This document shows, in pieces, positions 1 to 7,979 of a DNA stretch of 7,979 nt (position 1 is the first letter of the stretch; the number at the start of each line of letters is the position of its first letter). The translations under genes were made by a program, and so were the position numbers. The notes beneath the pieces are model-generated. The model was not told the origin of the DNA, made no database searches, and was given only the letters and a program-made list of their open reading frames with translations. The DNA is from a virus (Duplodnaviria > Heunggongvirae > Uroviricota > Caudoviricetes): IMG/VR virus record IMGVR_UViG_2751185968_000016. One strand, 5' to 3'.

Positions 1-1356
1 TCAAATGACCAGTTTTTTCCATTCCTTACCGCGTGCGTCGTTGTAAATATCGGTCATTTTTTGATTCGAATGGCCCAGCAAAATTTTGGTATCAACCCCC
101 TGCTCTCTGAACAATCGCTCTGATAAAGATCTCTGCTCATGGAAAGAGGGTGGGGTGCCATTAGCACGCCAGTTGTAATCCACAGAATCCCGGGCTTTTT
201 TAAATGCAACGGTTAATGTTGCTGGCTTAACCATCCCGCCGCGCTTAGCTGTCCCTTTCGCGTGATGGTGGTGCAATAGCCACGGACTAAGAACGCAATC
301 GCGGCAGGATGACACCACATCATCTAGGGTGAGATTTAATTTATCGCAACGCAGAGCCAGAGGGATGGCAATCCGGGTTCCTGTTTTTTGCTGTTCGACA
401 TGAAGATAACCATCCCGGATATCCGAAAATTGCATTTTGCAAATATCTGAAAGGCGCTGGCCTGTCATCAGTGCCAGCAGCATACCGCGCTGTAAAAAGT
501 AACCATCCTTTTCCGCTGCGTTATAAATCATCATCCACTCATCAAAAGTCAGTCGCTGTCTTGATATCCGCACCTGCGGTTTTTTTGCCGATTCTGCAGG
601 GTTAAAGCCTGGCGGGACATCGCCCGTTTGCTGAGCTTCCCGGAAAACATCGATCAGTACCTTCCTGAAAATTTGTCCCATTCTGTTATGTCCTCTGGCC
701 TTGTACTCTTCCAGTACTGATACCACATCTTTTACGGTTATGGCATCTAACGGTCTGGTGCCAAAACGTTCATCAAATACCCTGAGAGGGGCCGCTTTCT
801 GTTTCAGCGTGTTGAGTTTGATCTCGCCGTTTTCATATCTTTCCTGTTGAATTTTTCTGTAATTATTCAGAAAAATGGTAACGGTTGATGAACCGCCGGT
901 ATCACTAATAATTTTCTCCTGCAGACTGAGCATTTGTTCCATTTGCTGCCGGGCAAGACGGCTGTTCGCTTCTGCTGCAATAGTTTCTGCCAGTTTCTGG
1001 TCAATACTGCCGAGACCGTGATTTTTGCCTGTTATGGGATGCCTGTAACGCCAGTAAACTTTGTTATTTCTTTTGTCAAAATACGGAGATAATCCCGGAA
1101 CATTGGTTTTATATTTTCGCGGCGCGCCATCTTCCAGTATCCTCTTCAAAGCAGGGTGATCTGTGGCGATCACCTCCGGCTTGTTTACCATTCCGACAAA
1201 GCGAGCTTGCGGATCCACTCGCCAGCGTCTTCCAACTTTTTTGGGGAGAGGAAATATCATTCCGGCTTTAGCGTATTTACTTAACGTACTCGGAGTTGGG
1301 ACCGGTTCACTGAATTCCTCTTTTGCCCACTCAGTGAGCAGAATAAGTCTTGCCAT
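1..1356 (-). CDS. int: Tyrosine recombinase (lambda Int-like integrase), 451 aa, with an in-frame N-terminal excisionase-like HTH segment
   Basis: Complete ORF; the minus-strand stop is at 1-3. Segments align to lambda Int from memory: VYWRYRHPITGKNHGLG, RLTFDEWMMIYNAAE, MTGQRLSDICKMQFSDIRDGYLHVEQQKTGTRIAIPLAL, PPSFHEQRSLSERL, LLGHSNQKMTDIYNDARGKEWKKLVI. Catalytic R, K, H-x-x-R, H and Y positions are all present. The first ~55 residues (LTEWAKEE...GMIFPLPKKVGRRWRVDPQARF) look like an Xis/AlpA-type HTH. Weak Shine-Dalgarno. Confidence 0.9.
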   Translation of the reverse strand: MARLILLTEWAKEEFSEPVPTPSTLSKYAKAGMIFPLPKKVGRRWRVDPQARFVGMVNKPEVIATDHPALKRILEDGAPRKYKTNVPGLSPYFDKRNNKVYWRYRHPITGKNHGLGSIDQKLAETIAAEANSRLARQQMEQMLSLQEKIISDTGGSSTVTIFLNNYRKIQQERYENGEIKLNTLKQKAAPLRVFDERFGTRPLDAITVKDVVSVLEEYKARGHNRMGQIFRKVLIDVFREAQQTGDVPPGFNPAESAKKPQVRISRQRLTFDEWMMIYNAAEKDGYFLQRGMLLALMTGQRLSDICKMQFSDIRDGYLHVEQQKTGTRIAIPLALRCDKLNLTLDDVVSSCRDCVLSPWLLHHHHAKGTAKRGGMVKPATLTVAFKKARDSVDYNWRANGTPPSFHEQRSLSERLFREQGVDTKILLGHSNQKMTDIYNDARGKEWKKLVI

Positions 1357-1420
1357 GAGCGTCGTTCGCTAATCATGGTCGCCGCCACTATAGCTGGTGG
1401 GCAACGACCGGGGTTGAACA

Positions 1421-3892
1421 TTAAAAATCAGCCTGATTCGGGATCAGTTTTTGCCAGATAACTGAAACGTATTTTGCCTGGTAACGGGCGTCATCAAGTG
1501 CATTATGGCGCTCACCTTCGAATGGAATAGCCGTTCTGGCATCGAAGTCTATGGCTTTCCCCAGCTCAACGATTGTGCGTACATCGCGATCGTTGTAGTA
1601 ACGCCACGGGCAGGGGATCCCCTGCCGTTCGTATGAACGGCGCAAAATCGTGTTGTCGAAGTTGGCTCCATTTCCCCAGACCTGAACAAAAAATTCACCG
1701 GAGTTTTCGTCGATAAATTCCCGCAATTGTAACAGTGCATCATCTAACGGGATTTCATCGGTCATAATGGCAGACTGCGCTTCACGTGATTGCTTCAGCC
1801 ACCTTTTAATGACGTCACGATCAATGACTCCGCCAGCAGTTTCCAGATCGATAGTCTTACTAAATTCCGGTCCCATATCTCCGGTTTGCGGATCGAAAAA
1901 TATTGCACCTATTGAGATAATCGGGGCATCAGGATTTTTTCCCATGGTTTCAAGGTCGATCATTAGATGGTCACACGTCCTGCTGGTGGATGTGATAACG
2001 TGATGACCGTTCATCGTAATTAAGGGATCTGCCGTCTCGCCAGTTTCACTATCGCTGGCGTGATCCTGAGCGCTACCAGCATTCTCCTTGTGTGGATGTT
2101 CAGCGCCTTCCATTTCCTTCGGATCATTTTCCTGAACTTCAACCTGATTCTCTTCATCGAATGTTTCCTGGTATGTTGCGTCACCCATCACCGCGCCACA
2201 ATCAGGGCAGTTGCCGCCACCGCTTTGACCGCAGGCGGTGCAGACTTTTTCCGGTTCCTGTTGCGCTACTGGCTCAGGTTGTTTCGTTTCTGGCTCGTTT
2301 TGTTGCGTATTTGGGCTGTTTTGTTCCGCTTTCTGGTCGTTCTGTTCCGATTCTTGCTGGTTCTGGTTTACAGAATCGCGGGTTTCAATCCCCTTTACCC
2401 ATTTCGGATCATTCGGGTCGCTAATCCCTGCAACAAATTCTCCGCGAGAGGCAGCAAGCAACTTATCGGCGTCAGGCTGGCTGATATTGGCTGCCTGCAT
2501 AATTTTGTTTACTTCGTCAGCGGTAACTTTTACCGGCTCTGGTTGTGCGGTCGTGTCAGATGCACCAGTATTTTGTTGTGAACCTGAGTACGTGCCGTTT
2601 TTACGTGCGAAGTATTCCTCTTTTGTGATTTCCGTAGCTCCCAAGGCTAGTGCTTTTTCCAGACCAGAAAGTTTGTTTGCGCGACCGTATTTTTCGCCAT
2701 CCTTGTCGGTGAAGAGGAAGTAGAACGGCCCCTCACGCTCTACAGATGGTTCGACTTCCACTTTGCATTCGGTTTTTTCGTTGCCCGGAATTGCCGTTTC
2801 CACTGCATCAGTTTCTGGTACTGGCGACGAGAGAGTATCAGTTGCGCTCTGATTTCTTCCTTCATCTTCAAACACGCCCTTTGTAGTCAGGTATTCAGTA
2901 ATGTATTTGTTCAGTGCCACAGGGTCTTTGTGAATGTCGATCGGACGTTCACGGACAAGGCCAAAAATAGTCTGGCGGTCGTAGCGAAGGGCATCAGGCT
3001 GTTTGCGCATTGATGCCGAGATACGCTTCCAGTCTTCGCGGTCGTTGTCGATAACTTCATTTTTTGCCCAGCGATGGATGCTGCCGTCAATGTTTCCGGC
3101 ATCCACATCACCAGGCCAGAGAGCGTAGGCCAGTTCGTCATCCAGTGTTTTCCATGTCTGCTTGTATTCGCGATGAATGGCAGCAATGACCGGGCTGATT
3201 TTTCCTGTTGAATTTTCACTGTGCTGTTGATTGGTTCTGGCGCGGGCGAGATCAACAACAGACGTGTATTTTCCGGTTTCCTTGCGTTCACCTTCGCGAC
3301 GTTTTTTCCAGATGCGCATCTCTGCCTGAATTTCGGGCCATTTGGCACCAGGCTTACATTTATGCTTAACCCACCCGATGGCATGCAGCTTAAGCTCCGG
3401 ATACATGGCGTTAACTTCTGGCATTTTCATCAACGCTTCAACGATATGTCCGTCGAATGTTGCCATGTCTTCCTGCAACAATTCCTGTGCGCTAATAACC
3501 ATATCAACGGTGATGTTTTCACATGTGTCGAACTTAACCATGACAGCGTTCTGTACTTCAGGGGCCAGCTTGTCAAAAGTGACGTTCATCGGATCGGATT
3601 CAGTCTCAACCGGGACAAAGGAAGCAGACTCCTCATCCCAGCGGTTTTCCTGCATATATTCAGCATCCCAGGAATCGAGGGCAGGGCGGGGTATACCGGG
3701 TTTATCCTCGCAGACAAGAAATTTATAAGCGCAGTCCTGAGCAGCCGGATAATGCTCCAGGAATTGCCAGTGAAATTTTGCGCGGGCGCGACGTTCATCA
3801 CCGGCTTCAATGGCTGTGGCTACAGCGACGGCACCTTCTTCCTTTATTGCCTGTTCGTCCGGAATGGCGGCGCAAATAAAGACTTTACTCAT
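1421..3892 (-). CDS. Large multidomain exonuclease-domain protein, 823 aa: YdfE-like N-terminal region, Q/E/N/P heptad linker, 4-Cys zinc ribbon, C-terminal DEDDh (DnaQ/RNase T-like) 3'-5' exonuclease
   Basis: Long ORF with GAGGT Shine-Dalgarno 7 nt upstream of the ATG at 3890-3892. C-terminal domain (residues ~640-815, nt ~1448-1975) has Exo I HLMIDLETMG, Exo II VWGNGANFDNTIL and Exo III HNALDDARYQAKY (H-x4-D), the DEDDh signature. Zinc ribbon CTACGQSGGGNCPDCG at residues 551-566 (nt 2195-2242). N-terminal ~330 residues resemble the K-12 Qin YdfE fragment as I recall it. The central segment KLLAASRGEFVAGISDPNDPKWVKGIETRD...CPDCGAVMGDATYQETFDEE resembles, from memory, the region just before the nuclease domain of Rac RecE. 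Confidence 0.85.
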   Translation of the reverse strand: MSKVFICAAIPDEQAIKEEGAVAVATAIEAGDERRARAKFHWQFLEHYPAAQDCAYKFLVCEDKPGIPRPALDSWDAEYMQENRWDEESASFVPVETESDPMNVTFDKLAPEVQNAVMVKFDTCENITVDMVISAQELLQEDMATFDGHIVEALMKMPEVNAMYPELKLHAIGWVKHKCKPGAKWPEIQAEMRIWKKRREGERKETGKYTSVVDLARARTNQQHSENSTGKISPVIAAIHREYKQTWKTLDDELAYALWPGDVDAGNIDGSIHRWAKNEVIDNDREDWKRISASMRKQPDALRYDRQTIFGLVRERPIDIHKDPVALNKYITEYLTTKGVFEDEGRNQSATDTLSSPVPETDAVETAIPGNEKTECKVEVEPSVEREGPFYFLFTDKDGEKYGRANKLSGLEKALALGATEITKEEYFARKNGTYSGSQQNTGASDTTAQPEPVKVTADEVNKIMQAANISQPDADKLLAASRGEFVAGISDPNDPKWVKGIETRDSVNQNQQESEQNDQKAEQNSPNTQQNEPETKQPEPVAQQEPEKVCTACGQSGGGNCPDCGAVMGDATYQETFDEENQVEVQENDPKEMEGAEHPHKENAGSAQDHASDSETGETADPLITMNGHHVITSTSRTCDHLMIDLETMGKNPDAPIISIGAIFFDPQTGDMGPEFSKTIDLETAGGVIDRDVIKRWLKQSREAQSAIMTDEIPLDDALLQLREFIDENSGEFFVQVWGNGANFDNTILRRSYERQGIPCPWRYYNDRDVRTIVELGKAIDFDARTAIPFEGERHNALDDARYQAKYVSVIWQKLIPNQADF

Positions 3893-3984
3893 TTTGTTTT
3901 ACCTCATTACAGATTTAAGGGTGAACAAATCCCTGCCATTGCTGGCATATAAGAATGAAACCGGATATTTATTACGGAACTGTT

Positions 3985-4176
3985 TTAAAGACCTGCCGGG
4001 ATTTCGTTATTATCCTGGTGAATAACTTTATCGACCGGGTAACAGTTACCGGGAATTTTCTGTTCGGTTGCTGCAGTCACACACTCCTGCATTGTCCTGT
4101 GAACACTGACTGCAATATCAACTGGCTCTCCGGAAACAAGAAAAACTGTCAGAACAAGTGCAAATGCTGTATTCAT
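3985..4176 (-). CDS. ydfD: YdfD-like small membrane lysis protein, 63 aa
   Basis: Internal start of track ORF 3985..4230. MNTAFALVLTVFLVSG is a hydrophobic N-terminal segment. Its ATG (4174-4176) overlaps the dicB stop (4173-4175) as ATGA, indicating translational coupling. Length and sequence match what I recall of Qin YdfD. Confidence 0.7.
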   Translation of the reverse strand: MNTAFALVLTVFLVSGEPVDIAVSVHRTMQECVTAATEQKIPGNCYPVDKVIHQDNNEIPAGL

Positions 4177-4361
4177 TGCCAGCATCCTTTTTGTATCGGA
4201 CGTAAACGGGCCAGCATTGAAAGAATGCATATTTTATTTAATAGCTCCCGTTCGTGTTTTCTCTTGTTAATGGCATCTTCAGTAAATACAGGGTTACTGA
4301 TATTGACACCAATTTCAAAACAACCTTCAGACGTATTAACGTTTGGTAATAACGTTTCCAT
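4173..4361 (-). CDS. dicB: DicB cell-division inhibitor (MinC-dependent FtsZ-ring inhibitor), 62 aa
   Basis: Internal Met of track ORF 4173..4466 gives METLLPNVNTSEGCFEIGVNISNPVFTEDAINKRKHERELLNKICILSMLARLRPIQKGCWQ, near-identical to the K-12 DicB sequence as I recall it. It sits directly downstream of DicF, as in Qin. Confidence 0.85.
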   Translation of the reverse strand: METLLPNVNTSEGCFEIGVNISNPVFTEDAINKRKHERELLNKICILSMLARLRPIQKGCWQ

Positions 4362-4526
4362 TATCGCGTCCTCAACAATGAATTTTGTGATGCGGTGCCT
4401 GGTGCCTCCAGGTGACGTTAACCAGTTAACAATTAACGCCGGATACAGAGAATCCACCCATAACACTGTTTTTGGTTTTAACTGTTCCGCGTGCGCTCAG
4501 CCGCATTCACCACATCACAAAATTCA

Positions 4527-4573
4527 CTTTAAAAAGGGCGGCAGAGCAGTCACGGAGTAAAACTGATACCGCC
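4527..4573 (-). terminator. Rho-independent terminator forming the DicF 3' end
   Basis: GC-rich imperfect stem (GGCGG...CUG/CAG...CCGCC within the DicF 3' half) followed by a U-tract (minus-strand TTTTT at plus 4531-4535). Confidence 0.5.
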
Positions 4574-4588
4574 AAACGTCACCAGAAA
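4536..4588 (-). ncRNA. dicF: DicF small regulatory RNA (Hfq-dependent antisense regulator of ftsZ and other targets)
   Basis: Reverse complement of 4536-4588 reads TTTCTGGTGACGTTTGGCGGTATCAGTTTTACTCCGTGACTGCTCTGCCGCCC, which matches the 53-nt DicF sequence as I remember it. It is followed on the minus strand by a TTTTTAAAG U-tract and lies between the ydfC-like and dicB genes. Confidence 0.85.
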
Positions 4589-4929
4589 ATTGATAACAGA
4601 GGGCGTTGCAGCGGGGTTGTCACTTAAGCGTATGGTCAACCTGACAACCCGGTGTCCTCAACGGTGGAAGGAATAACCCCGCCATACTTACCGCCGCGCC
4701 ATTTCGCGGATTGCCACAACCGGAAGCGCACGGTCGACGAAAATTTAACGACAGGCTATCTATGAACCAGCTACCTCGCCGTGCGCTTTCGCGTTATGGT
4801 CTGACTTTTCAGGGAAATATCCTTTCAGTAAACTGTCAGTGCCGGATGCTCACCCGTGTCCGGCGCACGCACTCCACCTCACCCGTGGAGAACTCCTTAA
4901 TTACCAACCTTAGCTTCGTTGGTTAGCTA

Positions 4930-5148
4930 TTAACGCGGGTATGTAATCATTCTGGCAATGCTTAATGCCGCTGCTTTTTCCAGATTAGTGATATCCTGCT
5001 CCAGAGCGGACAGATTTTCAGCCTGCTTAGCCCTGGCTTCATTGGCCCATTTCAGATCCTGCGCTGCATTAATTTTCTGGTGCATCCACTCATAAAGTTC
5101 ATCATCGGTATAGTCTGGCGCGATGATGACGGGTTCTCGTTTCTGCAT
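4930..5148 (-). CDS. ydfC: YdfC-like small protein, 72 aa, function unknown
   Basis: Track ORF with GAGGAA Shine-Dalgarno upstream of the ATG at 5146-5148. Its size and position (third small ORF after the repressor, upstream of DicF) match Qin ydfC. Predicted helical and charged. Confidence 0.65.
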   Translation of the reverse strand: MQKREPVIIAPDYTDDELYEWMHQKINAAQDLKWANEARAKQAENLSALEQDITNLEKAAALSIARMITYPR

Positions 5149-5177
5149 ACTGATTCCTCGCGGTGCTGCTTCGCTTA

Positions 5178-5306
5178 TCAGCCGTTAGATTTTGCCGAGC
5201 TGGAAAGCGCCTGTTTAAACTCACTGAAGCTGAGAGCTTCTTCGCCTTCGGCAAGGCCTTCGAAGTATTCTTCGTAAGCCTTTTCCATGATTGTGTCGAA
5301 ATCCAT
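5178..5306 (-). CDS. ydfB: YdfB-like tiny acidic protein, 42 aa (MDFDTIMEKAYEEYFEGLAEGEEALSFSEFKQALSSSAKSNG)
   Basis: Hand-translated from the minus strand; not in the ORF track because of its length. AGGTGA Shine-Dalgarno upstream. Its start lies 2 nt after the ydfA-like stop (TGA-T-ATG). Stop is tca at 5178-5180. Confidence 0.55.
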   Translation of the reverse strand: MDFDTIMEKAYEEYFEGLAEGEEALSFSEFKQALSSSAKSNG

Positions 5307-5307
5307 A

Positions 5308-5463
5308 TCACTCACCTGAGTTTCTTTCCAGCCAGCGACGGGCACCATTTTCGGTTTTAAACGTTTTGCTTTTGGTATACGTCATTGCGGTGAACGTGCC
5401 GTCCTGGTTTGGAAACACGCCGTACACCAGAGATTCGTTGTTGCCAAGATCGATAGTATCCAT
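5308..5463 (-). CDS. ydfA: YdfA-like small protein, 51 aa (MDTIDLGNNESLVYGVFPNQDGTFTAMTYTKSKTFKTENGARRWLERNSGE)
   Basis: Internal Met of track ORF 5308..5619, with GAGGT Shine-Dalgarno 5 nt upstream of the ATG at 5461-5463. First gene downstream of the putative pL-like promoter. Confidence 0.6.
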   Translation of the reverse strand: MDTIDLGNNESLVYGVFPNQDGTFTAMTYTKSKTFKTENGARRWLERNSGE

Positions 5464-5539
5464 GCTGACCTCATTTCCCCTTAACGCCGGGGTAGCGGAA
5501 CTGTTTGCGGAGAACACCGTGCGGTGTGTTGATGGAGGT

Positions 5540-5568
5540 AATTTAGTTTTCTCATTATTTTTCGTCAA
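5540..5568 (-). promoter_or_regulatory. Candidate sigma70 promoter of the leftward ydfA-dicF-dicB operon (pL analogue)
   Basis: On the minus strand: -35 TTGACG (plus 5563-5568), 17-nt spacer, -10 TAAATT (plus 5540-5545). Flanked by operator-like inverted repeats. Confidence 0.35.
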
Positions 5569-5590
5569 GGTTTTTTGATGAGAAAACTCA
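5543..5590. promoter_or_regulatory. Two operator-like inverted repeats (TGAG-N4-CTCA type) flanking the -35 of the leftward promoter
   Basis: TGAGAAAACTCA at 5579-5590 and a degenerate inverted copy TTAGTTTTCTCA at 5543-5554, centres ~36 bp apart. The same 12-mer recurs at 6115-6126 in the repressor/cro intergenic region. Confidence 0.4.
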
Positions 5591-5655
5591 AGTGCTGGCG
5601 CAAGATAAAGCCAATACATTGAAATGTAAGGCTTTAAAATTTTGTGAAGGGATGA

Positions 5656-6063
5656 TTATTGATGCTTGTTGCGTTTGCGAGCCTCTAATAGCTCGGTGAA
5701 CAGGCGATTAAAATTCTCAACGCGGGCGCGGAGTTCGCTGAGTTGTGCTTGTTGCTCTGATTTAGGAAGTGCGCGATACAAACGCAGCATCTCTAACTCA
5801 TCTTCCGATAAGTCTAGGGTACTATCGAGTGAAACAGGGGGAGCTGGTGTTTTGTCCTCGTCGCCAAACAGTATCCAGGTTGGTGAACATTGCAATACCT
5901 CGGCGAGGCGATGCAAATTTTGCCCGCGCGGGGCTGTATGGTCACTTTCCCATAATGAAATTGATGAGCCAGATACGCCAGCAGCTTTGCTTAAACCGTT
6001 TTGACTTAAGCCTACCTGCTTACGTCTTTCTCTAATGCGTTGACCTAAAGTTTTCTCGTTCAT
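5656..6063 (-). CDS. dicA: DicA-like XRE-family HTH repressor (CI/C2 analogue), 135 aa
   Basis: Internal start MNEKTLGQRIRERRKQVGLSQNGLSKAAGVSGSSISLWE... gives 135 aa, the DicA length. Classic HTH_XRE pattern and a conserved LQCSPTWILFGDED segment. Divergent from the Cro-like gene. The track's 152-aa form is an upstream extension. Confidence 0.8.
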   Translation of the reverse strand: MNEKTLGQRIRERRKQVGLSQNGLSKAAGVSGSSISLWESDHTAPRGQNLHRLAEVLQCSPTWILFGDEDKTPAPPVSLDSTLDLSEDELEMLRLYRALPKSEQQAQLSELRARVENFNRLFTELLEARKRNKHQ

Positions 6064-6084
6064 ATTTAGATATCTTAATAATCC

Positions 6085-6128
6085 TTGACTTGAGATTCCT
6101 TGAGTGATTAGCATTGAGAAAACTCAAT
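6085..6128 (+). promoter_or_regulatory. Candidate rightward promoter (pR analogue) with overlapping operator
   Basis: -35 TTGACT (6085-6090), 18-nt spacer, -10 TAGCAT (6109-6114). Inverted repeat TTGAGAAAACTCAA (6114-6127) lies immediately downstream. Further TTGAG half-sites at 6090-6094 and 6100-6104. Confidence 0.4.
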
Positions 6129-6140
6129 ATTGGAGGTGCG

Positions 6141-6368
6141 ATGTTTAAATCAGACGTAATTAATTTTTACGGTACGAAAGCCAAAGTAGCGAAAGCTGCT
6201 GGCGTTGACCCATCTGCTGTTTCTCAATGGCAAGAGCTAGTTCCTGAAGGTCGCGCGATGCGTCTACAGGAGGCATCTGGCGGCGAGCTTCTGTATGATC
6301 CCAAGGTTTATGACGAATATCGTAAGACGAAGCGGGCGGGGCGGTTGAACAATGAAAATCACTCCTGA
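6141..6368 (+). CDS. Cro-like small HTH regulator of the YdaS/DicC family, 75 aa
   Basis: GGAGG Shine-Dalgarno at 6133-6137 and ATG at 6141; the track's 84-aa form starts upstream of the SD. Conserved YdaS/DicC-type core (FYGTKAKVAKAAGVDPSAVSQW). Divergent from the repressor. Confidence 0.75.
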   Translation: MFKSDVINFYGTKAKVAKAAGVDPSAVSQWQELVPEGRAMRLQEASGGELLYDPKVYDEYRKTKRAGRLNNENHS

Positions 6369-6873
6369 ACAGGCTCGTGAGGCTCTGGATGCCTGGATAT
6401 GTCGACCAGGAATGACACAGGAGCAGGCGACGATATTAATCACTGAAGCATTCTGGGCTTTGAAAGAGCGCCCGAACATCGATGTTCAGCGTGTCACAGA
6501 TGAAGGTGGCGCGGTTGATCAGCGAGCGCTTGGCGTTAATCGAGTGAAGATATTCGAACGCTGGAAGGCTATCGACACCAGGGATAAGCGTGAAAAGTTC
6601 ACGGCGCTAGTGCCTGCAATTATGGAGGCTATCCGGATTAATGATTTCAGGTTGTATCGTGAAATTAGTGACGGAAAAAGCATCACGTACATGATCGCCG
6701 GGTTAAACAAAGAATATGGCGATGTGGTGGAGTCCGGACTGCTTTTTGCTGATCCTGCCGTAGTGGATCGTGAAACTGACGAACTTATAGAAAAAGCAAT
6801 TGCTTTCAAACTTGCGTATCGACAGCAATACCAACAAAAAGCTGGATGGAATTATGAGCCTTCTTTTTGCTGA
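6352..6873 (+). CDS. YdaT-like protein, 173 aa (CII-position regulator; sometimes annotated as a toxin)
   Basis: Overlaps the Cro-like stop by 17 nt. ERWKAIDTRDKREKFTALVPAIMEAI resembles the Rac YdaT core as I recall it. Sits at the cII position of lambdoid maps. Confidence 0.7.
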   Translation: MKITPEQAREALDAWICRPGMTQEQATILITEAFWALKERPNIDVQRVTDEGGAVDQRALGVNRVKIFERWKAIDTRDKREKFTALVPAIMEAIRINDFRLYREISDGKSITYMIAGLNKEYGDVVESGLLFADPAVVDRETDELIEKAIAFKLAYRQQYQQKAGWNYEPSFC

Positions 6874-7631
6874 ACGCCCACTGGTTATAAACACACAGCT
6901 TGCGATGAAGATTGGCTTAAATGAAGCCATTGTGTTGCAGCAGTTGCATTACTGGTTGAGAGATACCAATTCCGGCATGGAATGTGATGGTGTTCGCTGG
7001 ATTTACAACACAACGGAACAATGGCTGGAACAGTTCCCATTCTGGTCAGAGTCAACGTTAAAGCGCGCGTTTGCAAGTCTGAAAACGCTGGGGCTCTTGC
7101 GTTGTGAAAAGCTCAATAAATCAAAGCGCGATATGACCAATTTCTACACGATTAACTATGGGAGCGAGCTTTTAGATGATGGCAAATTGAGCGAATCCAT
7201 CGGTTCAAAATGCGCCGCTCCATCAGGTCAAAATGACACGATGGAAGAGGTCAAAATGAAACGCTCCATTGGTTCAAAACGACCCAATGTCATCGGGTCA
7301 AAATGGCCCGATGATCCTACAGAGAATACAACAGAGATTACTACAGAGAATAAAAACACTTTTCGTCCGGAAGCTTCGCAACCGGACCCGCAGACGGCTG
7401 AACAGGATTTTTTAATCCGGCACCCTGGCGCAGTTGTGTTTAGTGCGAAAAAACGCCAGTGGGGTAGCCAGGAGGATCTGGCGTGTGCGCAGTGGATATG
7501 GGGGCGGATCGTGGGTCTCTACGAACAGGCCGCCAGTGATGATGGCGAGATCATGCGACCAAAAGAGCCTAACTGGACTGTCTGGGCCAATGATGTGCGC
7601 ACAATGCGGATGCTGGATGGCAGAAGCCACA
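6854..7631 (+). pseudogene. Replication initiator (lambda O-like replisome organizer), C-terminally truncated by IS insertion
   Basis: The N-terminal domain FAERPLVINTQLAMKIGLNEAIVLQQLHYWL...TLKRAFASLKTLGLL is typical of phage O-type initiators. Iterons lie inside the gene. Homology-independent break at 7631/7632, where an IS terminal inverted repeat begins; the remaining track translation to 7792 is read-through into the IS. Confidence 0.6.
7195..7306. repeat. Five direct iterons (consensus about CATCGGTCAAAATG) at 23-24 bp spacing: candidate prophage replication origin
   Basis: TCAAAA cores at 7205, 7228, 7251, 7274 and 7298. Followed by an A-rich segment with a duplicated TACAGAGAATA (7318-7353). 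Embedded in the O-like gene, as lambda ori is in O. Confidence 0.6.
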
Positions 7632-7671
7632 TGAACCGCTCCGGGTTTCCTGGAGAGTGTTTTATCTGTGA
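7632..7671. repeat. Terminal inverted repeat of the IS3-family element
   Basis: TGAACCGCTCCGGGTTTCCTGGAGAG... begins with the 5'-TG characteristic of IS3-family ends and resembles the IS629/IS1203 end sequence as I recall it. Confidence 0.5.
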
Positions 7672-7673
7672 AC

Positions 7674-7979
7674 TCAGGCTGCCAGATCATCGTTTCCGAT
7701 GGAAGCATAATAAGCTTTTTCTGCTTCTGCCGGAGGGATGTGGCCCAGCCTTTCCAGCAATCGTCGATTATTATACCAGTCCACCCACGTGAGTGTGGCC
7801 AGTTCCACTTCTGCACGGTTTTTCCAGCTCTTACGGTGTATTACCTCCGCTTTGTAAAGACCATTGATGCTCTCCGCCATCGCGTTGTCATACGAGTCGC
7901 CTGTACTTCCTGTTGATGCCAGTAATCCGGCTTCCTTAAGCCGCTGTGTGTAGGCCAGCGATACATACTGAGAACCTTT
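7674..7979 (-). CDS. IS3-family transposase OrfB, C-terminal 101 aa (5' end outside the window)
   Basis: Minus-strand frame is open from the window end to the stop at 7674-7676: KGSQYVSLAYTQRLKEAGLLASTGSTGDSYDNAMAESINGLYKAEVIH...NNRRLLERLGH..., containing the DDE-domain YDNA..AES block typical of IS3-family OrfB. Confidence 0.85.
   Translation of the reverse strand, partial: KGSQYVSLAYTQRLKEAGLLASTGSTGDSYDNAMAESINGLYKAEVIHRKSWKNRAEVELATLTWVDWYNNRRLLERLGHIPPAEAEKAYYASIGNDDLAA

Follow-up and report, generated by a model that had tools for sequence, protein, structure and literature searches.

Prophage genes and the IS629 end in the window

The window, meaning here the whole stretch of 7,979 nucleotides under analysis, carries the left arm of a lambdoid prophage up to position 7631 and the end of an insertion sequence (IS) from position 7632 onward. 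The features to which the text refers are the following (coordinates, strand where assigned, and description).

1-1356, minus strand: xis and int, fused into one open reading frame of 451 amino acids by a 1-nt deletion (GGG to GG) at 1118-1120
4173-4361, minus strand: dicB, with no difference from dicB of the nearest uninterrupted prophage
4536-4587, minus strand: the small RNA DicF (Rfam RF00039, 76.7 bits, E = 4.5e-16)
5656-6063, minus strand: DicA/CI-type helix-turn-helix (HTH) repressor without a peptidase domain, from profile matches
6141-6368, plus strand: cro-like gene, next after the repressor in the window
6352-6873, plus strand: YdaT/CII-like gene, after the cro-like gene
6854-7631, plus strand: 5' 778 nt of an O-like initiator gene (codons 1-259 plus 1 nt), 100% identical to positions 8055-8832 of the intact locus L001; PHROG 391
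6854-7792, plus strand: fusion open reading frame of 312 amino acids by translation, with 259 O-like and 53 IS-derived residues and the stop codon at 7790-7792; equal to WP_371440907.1
7198-7313: candidate origin-like iteron array from a repeat search, with five 23-bp repeats (core CATCGGKTCAAAAYG) at a spacing of 23-24 bp
7317-7369: A+T-rich stretch (GC 0.37) with 12-bp repeats, adjoining the iterons and encoding the disordered linker of the protein
7629-7631: predicted 3-bp target site ACA, expected to be duplicated at the other IS end, outside the window, if the insertion was simple; deduced from the CTT/CTT flanks of the pCP301 copy
7632-7979, minus strand: right-hand 348 bp of IS629 (IS3 family), by identity to the pCP301 copy, with the transposase opposite in orientation to the O-like gene
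7632-7656: terminal inverted repeat (IRR) TGAACCGCTCCGGGTTTCCTGGAGA, starting with 5'-TG and departing from the reference copies only by T/C at 7640; this is the end visible in the window
7674-7979, minus strand: 3' end of the transposase gene orfB, consisting of its last 101 codons and the stop codon at 7674-7676, from rve_3 and transpos_IS3 matches

To determine the boundary between prophage and IS, the whole window and its segment 6800-7979 were each compared by megablast with 5,426 complete E. coli genomes. All the prophage matches were found to stop at window position 7631, which sets the junction at exactly 7631/7632 and bears out to the base the cut in the O-like frame that had been proposed in the preliminary description of this DNA. 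Across the insertion site the intact gene of E. coli 55989 reads ...GCCACA followed by GACAAATTTG (also given as ...GCCACA followed by GACAAATTTGTG), while at 7631/7632 the window reads ...GCCACA followed by TGAACCGCTCCGGG (also given as ...GCCACA followed by TGAACCGCTCCGGGTTTCC).

The sequence from 7632 to 7979 is identical at 347 of 348 positions to the copy annotated as IS629 ORF2 (IS629 ORF2/ORF1) of S. flexneri pCP301 (AF386526.1), the sole mismatch being the T/C difference within the terminal inverted repeat, and it differs at 18 of the 348 positions from the IS1203 copy of E. coli E2863. The minus-strand frame at 7677-7979 was matched by Pfam rve_3 at 1.1e-12 and, over positions 283-369 of the 369-position model, by NCBIfam transpos_IS3 at 1.5e-27. 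The full copy in pCP301 is 1309 bp in length, carries 25-bp terminal repeats that match at 23 of 25 positions, and is flanked by the 3-bp duplication CTT/CTT; orfA, with the programmed -1 frameshift that yields OrfAB, is present in full IS629 copies elsewhere. On these sequence matches the element is IS629, a member of the IS3 family. The preliminary description had recognized an IS3-family, IS629-like element at this position, with a TG-initiated terminal inverted repeat at the junction and the 3' end of a transposase OrfB on the minus strand, and all three points are upheld by the pCP301 copy and the two profile matches, the repeat being equal to the IRR of full copies except for the one base.

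In the left arm, int had been taken as intact, but in the window assembly this is not the case. The deletion at 1118-1120 lies in the xis/int overlap (window 1108-1130) and joins residues 1-78 of Xis to residues 5-376 of Int; translation from the native start of int (ATG at 1130) is out of frame after codon 3 and meets a stop after 32 codons. As xis and int are separate in sister contigs, including L013, which carries the same IS junction, the fusion in the window either arose later and is private to this assembly or reflects an error in the consensus. The other genes for which integrity had been claimed are all there: dicB, DicF, the exonuclease and the repressor agree with their counterparts in intact relatives. 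The immunity region (5656-6873) as a whole is of the DicA/DicC type, with an HTH repressor devoid of the S24 peptidase domain and a P22_Cro-like gene. As to the YdaT/CII-like protein encoded there, the profile libraries disagree, one assigning it to the YdaT toxin family and PHROGs to the CII-like activators.

The O-like initiator and the probable effect of its truncation

Intact homologs of the interrupted gene in RefSeq start at the ATG corresponding to window position 6854 and are 966 nt (321 amino acids) in length. The cut thus falls after codon 259 of 321, and the earlier placement at residue 277, which had been counted from an upstream TTG (6800), is corrected. Since homologs in Escherichia, Citrobacter and Salmonella range from 321 to 331 amino acids and are conserved through the C-terminal domain, a gene that naturally ends near the cut, the finding that would have spoken against an interruption, is ruled out. 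The 201-nt sequence centered on the insertion site is contiguous in 2,524 of the 5,426 complete E. coli genomes, and a full-length, 97% identical gene for the 321-residue protein stands in the same early-region layout in three phage isolates, HannyBb, PhiR42_1 and mEp460_ev081.

The initiator was matched throughout its length by PHROG 391 (replication initiation O-like) at 3e-92. By BLASTP its residues 147-294 align with residues 135-270 of lambda O at 34% identity (E = 3e-27), this similarity being confined to the C-terminal domain, and the cut aligns to about residue 235 of lambda O. No family in Pfam or NCBIfam scored above its cutoff for the initiator, the sole NCBIfam signal being a weak match to the C-terminus of DnaT, and newer RefSeq annotations label the protein as phage replication protein O. 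From the PHROG match, the homology to the C-terminal domain of lambda O and the internal iterons, the interrupted gene is a lambda-O-type replication initiator, in agreement with the preliminary description.

The domain architecture was taken from an AlphaFold2 model, which was built on an alignment of 15 sequences with a mean pLDDT of 53 and is used here for the architecture only. The model consists of a winged-helix N-terminal domain (about residues 10-100), a disordered linker (101-175), a helical C-terminal domain (183-295) and a disordered tail (297-321). The cut after residue 259 removes 62 residues, or the final fifth of the chain, including four of the seven helices of the modeled C-terminal domain (259-267, 273-278, 282-287 and 289-295) and the tail with its terminal IPPGFRG, which resembles the C-terminus of DnaT.

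Upstream of the cut lies the repeat array at 7198-7369, a candidate origin-like array that is left intact by the IS insertion. Four matches to the iteron core with 0-1 mismatch are clustered within 7198-7313, and over the whole window five matches were obtained at up to 3 mismatches against 0.83 expected. The position of the iterons within the gene corresponds to that of ori within lambda O. Some of the five iterons show internal dyad symmetry and a TCAAAAYG core, and the 12-bp repeats that follow them are three in number.

In lambda, it is through its C-terminal domain that O takes part in helicase loading. IS629 has either transposed into, or now forms a junction in, what appears to be the single dedicated replication gene of the prophage. 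The break after codon 259 would leave the iterons and the DNA-binding half of the protein, with the last four helices of the predicted C-terminal domain and the tail replaced by 53 unrelated residues. Origin binding could persist in such a truncated protein while the helicase-loading machinery would no longer be recruited, which would leave an induced prophage unable to replicate. The insertion probably also impairs transcription of the genes that lie beyond it. That loss of the C-terminus abolishes phage replication is thus plausible, and we regard it as a sound inference.

Spread of the junction and its interpretation

Positions 1-7631 of the window match a lambdoid prophage adjacent to ompW at 99.8-99.9% identity in many E. 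coli strains. Among complete genomes, that of E. coli 700481 is the closest, with an uninterrupted prophage from which the window is separated over 7,631 nt by 4 SNPs and a single 1-nt deletion; the relative in E. coli 55989 is a prophage of roughly 50 kb with lysis and morphogenesis genes. An exact look-up of the 312-residue fusion product identified its RefSeq entry as a protein of unclassified Shigella. In addition, a 262-residue partial product ending in ...DGRSHMNR derives from the same junction on contigs that stop 8 nt into the IS; it is indexed in at least 50 contig blocks under the names Shigella boydii, unclassified Shigella and E. coli. The junction was found in none of the 5,426 complete E. 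coli genomes, and an exact scan of a genome-contig collection for it gave no match.

As the window ends within a multi-copy repeat, the junction might be suspected to be an assembly artefact, in which reads from an IS629 copy located elsewhere were joined to the intact gene at a chimeric contig end. The probability of this is negligible, because precisely this junction recurs in numerous assemblies and sequencing runs of independent origin, among them contigs L003, L004, L013, L014 and L015 and the Logan assembly of SRR29633931, and because it sits exactly at the IS terminus, as expected of a real insertion. Its recurrence in independent assemblies excludes an accident of assembly. The insertion is real, recent, and fixed in a Shigella clade.

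The form of the event is a separate question, to which the other IS end would be the key. Extension of the contig through look-ups of the fusion protein and the partial product yielded draft contigs only, all ending inside the IS at most 34 nt past the end of the window. A simple insertion would give ...GGGGCGGTTCA-ACA-GACAAATTTGTG..., that is, the left end of the IS, the ACA duplication and the remainder of the gene. For this predicted junction (GGCGGTTCA, 0-8 nt, GACAAATTTGTGAAATGTTTGG), scans of a genome-contig and a metagenome-contig collection, both with few Shigella draft contigs, gave no match. The 3' remnant of the gene was searched for as a protein fragment, in cluster listings and by contig look-ups, and none was attributable to the Shigella lineage; these searches did return a contig that starts 11 nt past the insertion site but belongs to a different allele, and IS junctions of other lineages at codons 245 and 274.

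We therefore considered an IS-mediated deletion or inversion, by which the initiator gene would have had its 3' end removed or moved elsewhere, possibly together with a large part of the prophage on the right. A direct precedent is the IS1203 insertion in the E. coli O111 prophages, which hit the same gene in the same orientation without target duplication (flanks TGA and ATC) and is followed by unrelated late-region genes. Shigella genomes are, moreover, heavily rearranged by IS elements. The absence of a Shigella-named 3' fragment of the initiator among the cluster members listed, and of the predicted left junction from the two collections scanned, points in the same direction but carries little weight, given the few Shigella draft contigs in those collections and the 15 members listed for each cluster; an IS end that abuts the gene perfectly with its TG-initiated repeat fits either event. 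With the O111 case of an adjacent deletion as precedent, a deletion or rearrangement is taken as a possibility to be reckoned with, albeit not as the expected outcome.

The same initiator gene has been broken independently elsewhere. IS1203 interrupts it at nt 660 in prophages of E. coli O111 such as that of strain E2863, and left-end junctions of IS elements are present at codons 245 and 274 in the other lineages mentioned above. A frameshift from A6 to A5 leads to a 279-residue product that is the representative of a 91-member cluster, and further frameshift and deletion products were seen. Records of broken initiators in other lineages include positions 6715-8025 of L005, positions 1-77 of L016, and the proteins P0136, P0144 and P0013. 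Such repeated hits could hint at selection against prophage replication, but they are equally expected from the documented tendency of IS629 to strike prophage genes (PMC4587872) and from the sheer abundance of the gene; insertions of the IS629 type in prophage genes are documented as a frequent, neutral process (PMC4587872).

The preliminary description had read the locus as one of adaptive domestication, in which selection for the replication knock-out kept int, the exonuclease, dicB/dicF and immunity as functions beneficial to the host. Fixation of the allele throughout a clade (at least 50 assemblies) and the independent disruption of the gene by IS elements and frameshifts elsewhere may be cited in its favor, and host-protective effects have been reported for both DicB and DicF. 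The arm, however, is nearly identical to those of intact, inducible-type prophages, and 4 SNPs in 7.6 kb leave no time for differential retention to show; the intactness of the flanking genes thus reflects a recent IS event and not selective retention. Furthermore, int is already frameshifted in the window assembly, so that decay is not confined to lytic functions. Drift together with IS expansion would be expected to fix such an allele in a clonal Shigella lineage, and the gene is found uninterrupted far more often than in any other state (the 2,524 genomes above). With the left 7.6 kb differing from an uninterrupted prophage by the 4 SNPs and one indel only, we could not sustain the domestication reading and consider it improbable. 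As a general caution, intact neighboring genes beside a fresh IS insertion say nothing about domestication.

Very probably, then, the locus represents an IS629 hit on the replication gene of a lambdoid prophage integrated at ompW, in a lineage of the S. boydii type, by ordinary decay rather than adaptive domestication. The event would be a recent, lineage-specific step of the IS-driven prophage decay typical of Shigella, and presumably a neutral one. Truncation of a prophage gene by IS629 is an ordinary event of an already known kind; inactivation of prophage genes in this manner is a well-documented routine of genome decay in Shigella and EHEC, and a further instance matters little in itself. 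The junction adds one more clade marker for the S. boydii-type lineage, with practical value as a typing marker.

The DnaT-like tail and comparison with known systems

A thread of wider interest is the C-terminal tail that is lost from the truncated initiator, for its distribution suggests how lambdoid phages without a loader gene recruit the helicase loader of the host. The C-terminus of the intact initiator, SEPDTEIPPGFRG-COOH (ending in VQRCVNHISEPDTEIPPGFRG; L001 8955-9017), is identical at 15 of 21 positions to the extreme C-terminus of host DnaT, and in both proteins the motif is anchored to the end. The IPxGFRG end is kept in relatives of 68-70% identity despite a difference in the linker that precedes it.

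We surveyed the tail in 80 IMG/VR loci plus four others, of which 83 could be typed by tail; in the remaining one the gene is truncated and has neither kind of tail, and P is absent. Among the 81 loci with the GFRG tail, lambda P was downstream in none, a DnaC/IstB-like AAA+ gene followed O directly in 22, and 59 carried no loader gene, while in both of the two loci with a lambda-like tail Phage_lambda_P was immediately downstream. For the phage type of the window, no P-type helicase loader was found immediately downstream of O, the gene at this position in intact relatives being DUF977/Ren-like, and even viable isolates are without a P or DnaC gene after O. The contact with a helicase loader that the preliminary description had carried over from lambda is thus not applicable in its lambda-like form. 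The DUF977 protein directly after O (L001 9061-9483) was matched by PHROG 142 (Ren-like exclusion protein) at 1.5e-46, and its gene stands where ren does in lambda, with P absent.

From this distribution we tentatively propose that initiators of this type mimic the DnaT tail and may thereby engage the host's DnaB-DnaC (or PriA) loading pathway directly. The tail would recruit a loader of the DnaC type, namely the host's own where the phage has none, and, if so, viable phages would thereby manage without a loader gene. On the same supposition, the IS629 cut would represent a natural deletion of the recruitment peptide. A preprimosome study of 2026 placed the C-terminal domain of DnaT on PriA and left open the recruitment of DnaB/DnaC (PMC13377028). 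In the literature searched, no stated role was found for the last 20 residues of DnaT, and the string PPGFRG was found in no paper. Some phage records name the initiator Primosomal protein I, and the resemblance to DnaT has therefore not gone wholly unnoticed.

In comparison with lambda, the initiator of the window type shares the homologous C-terminal domain of O, and the gene order cro, cII-like, O and ren-like is common to both. The lambda ori lies within O, and in the window type iterons followed by an A+T-rich stretch are likewise situated inside the gene, in the region coding for the disordered linker. The two differ at the very end of the protein, where lambda O terminates in ...DWIYGVDL and the window-type initiator in the DnaT-like IPPGFRG, and in the absence of a P gene after O in the window type. 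The phages HannyBb, PhiR42_1 and mEp460_ev081 and the prophage at the ompW site of E. coli 55989 share with the window an early region of the same make-up (exonuclease, ydfD, dicB, repressor, cro, ydaT/cII-like, O-like and DUF977/Ren-like), with initiators 97-100% identical to its own; unlike the window, they carry an uninterrupted initiator of 321 amino acids and separate xis and int genes.

The IS1203 insertion of the O111 prophages agrees with that of the window in the gene hit, the orientation of the IS and the kind of element, but differs in site (nt 660 against nt 778), in isoform (the 18 mismatches in 348 nt given above) and in the adjoining deletion without target duplication. The window element itself shares with IS629 of Shigella and E. 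coli, of which IS1203 and IS3411 are near-identical isoforms, the TG-initiated terminal repeat and the DDE integrase core (rve_3). In both, orfB ends 42 nt from the tip of the element, and both are inserted in prophage genes; the difference is the single T/C change at 7640 in the inverted repeat, as judged from the right end, which is the part of the element that the window contains.
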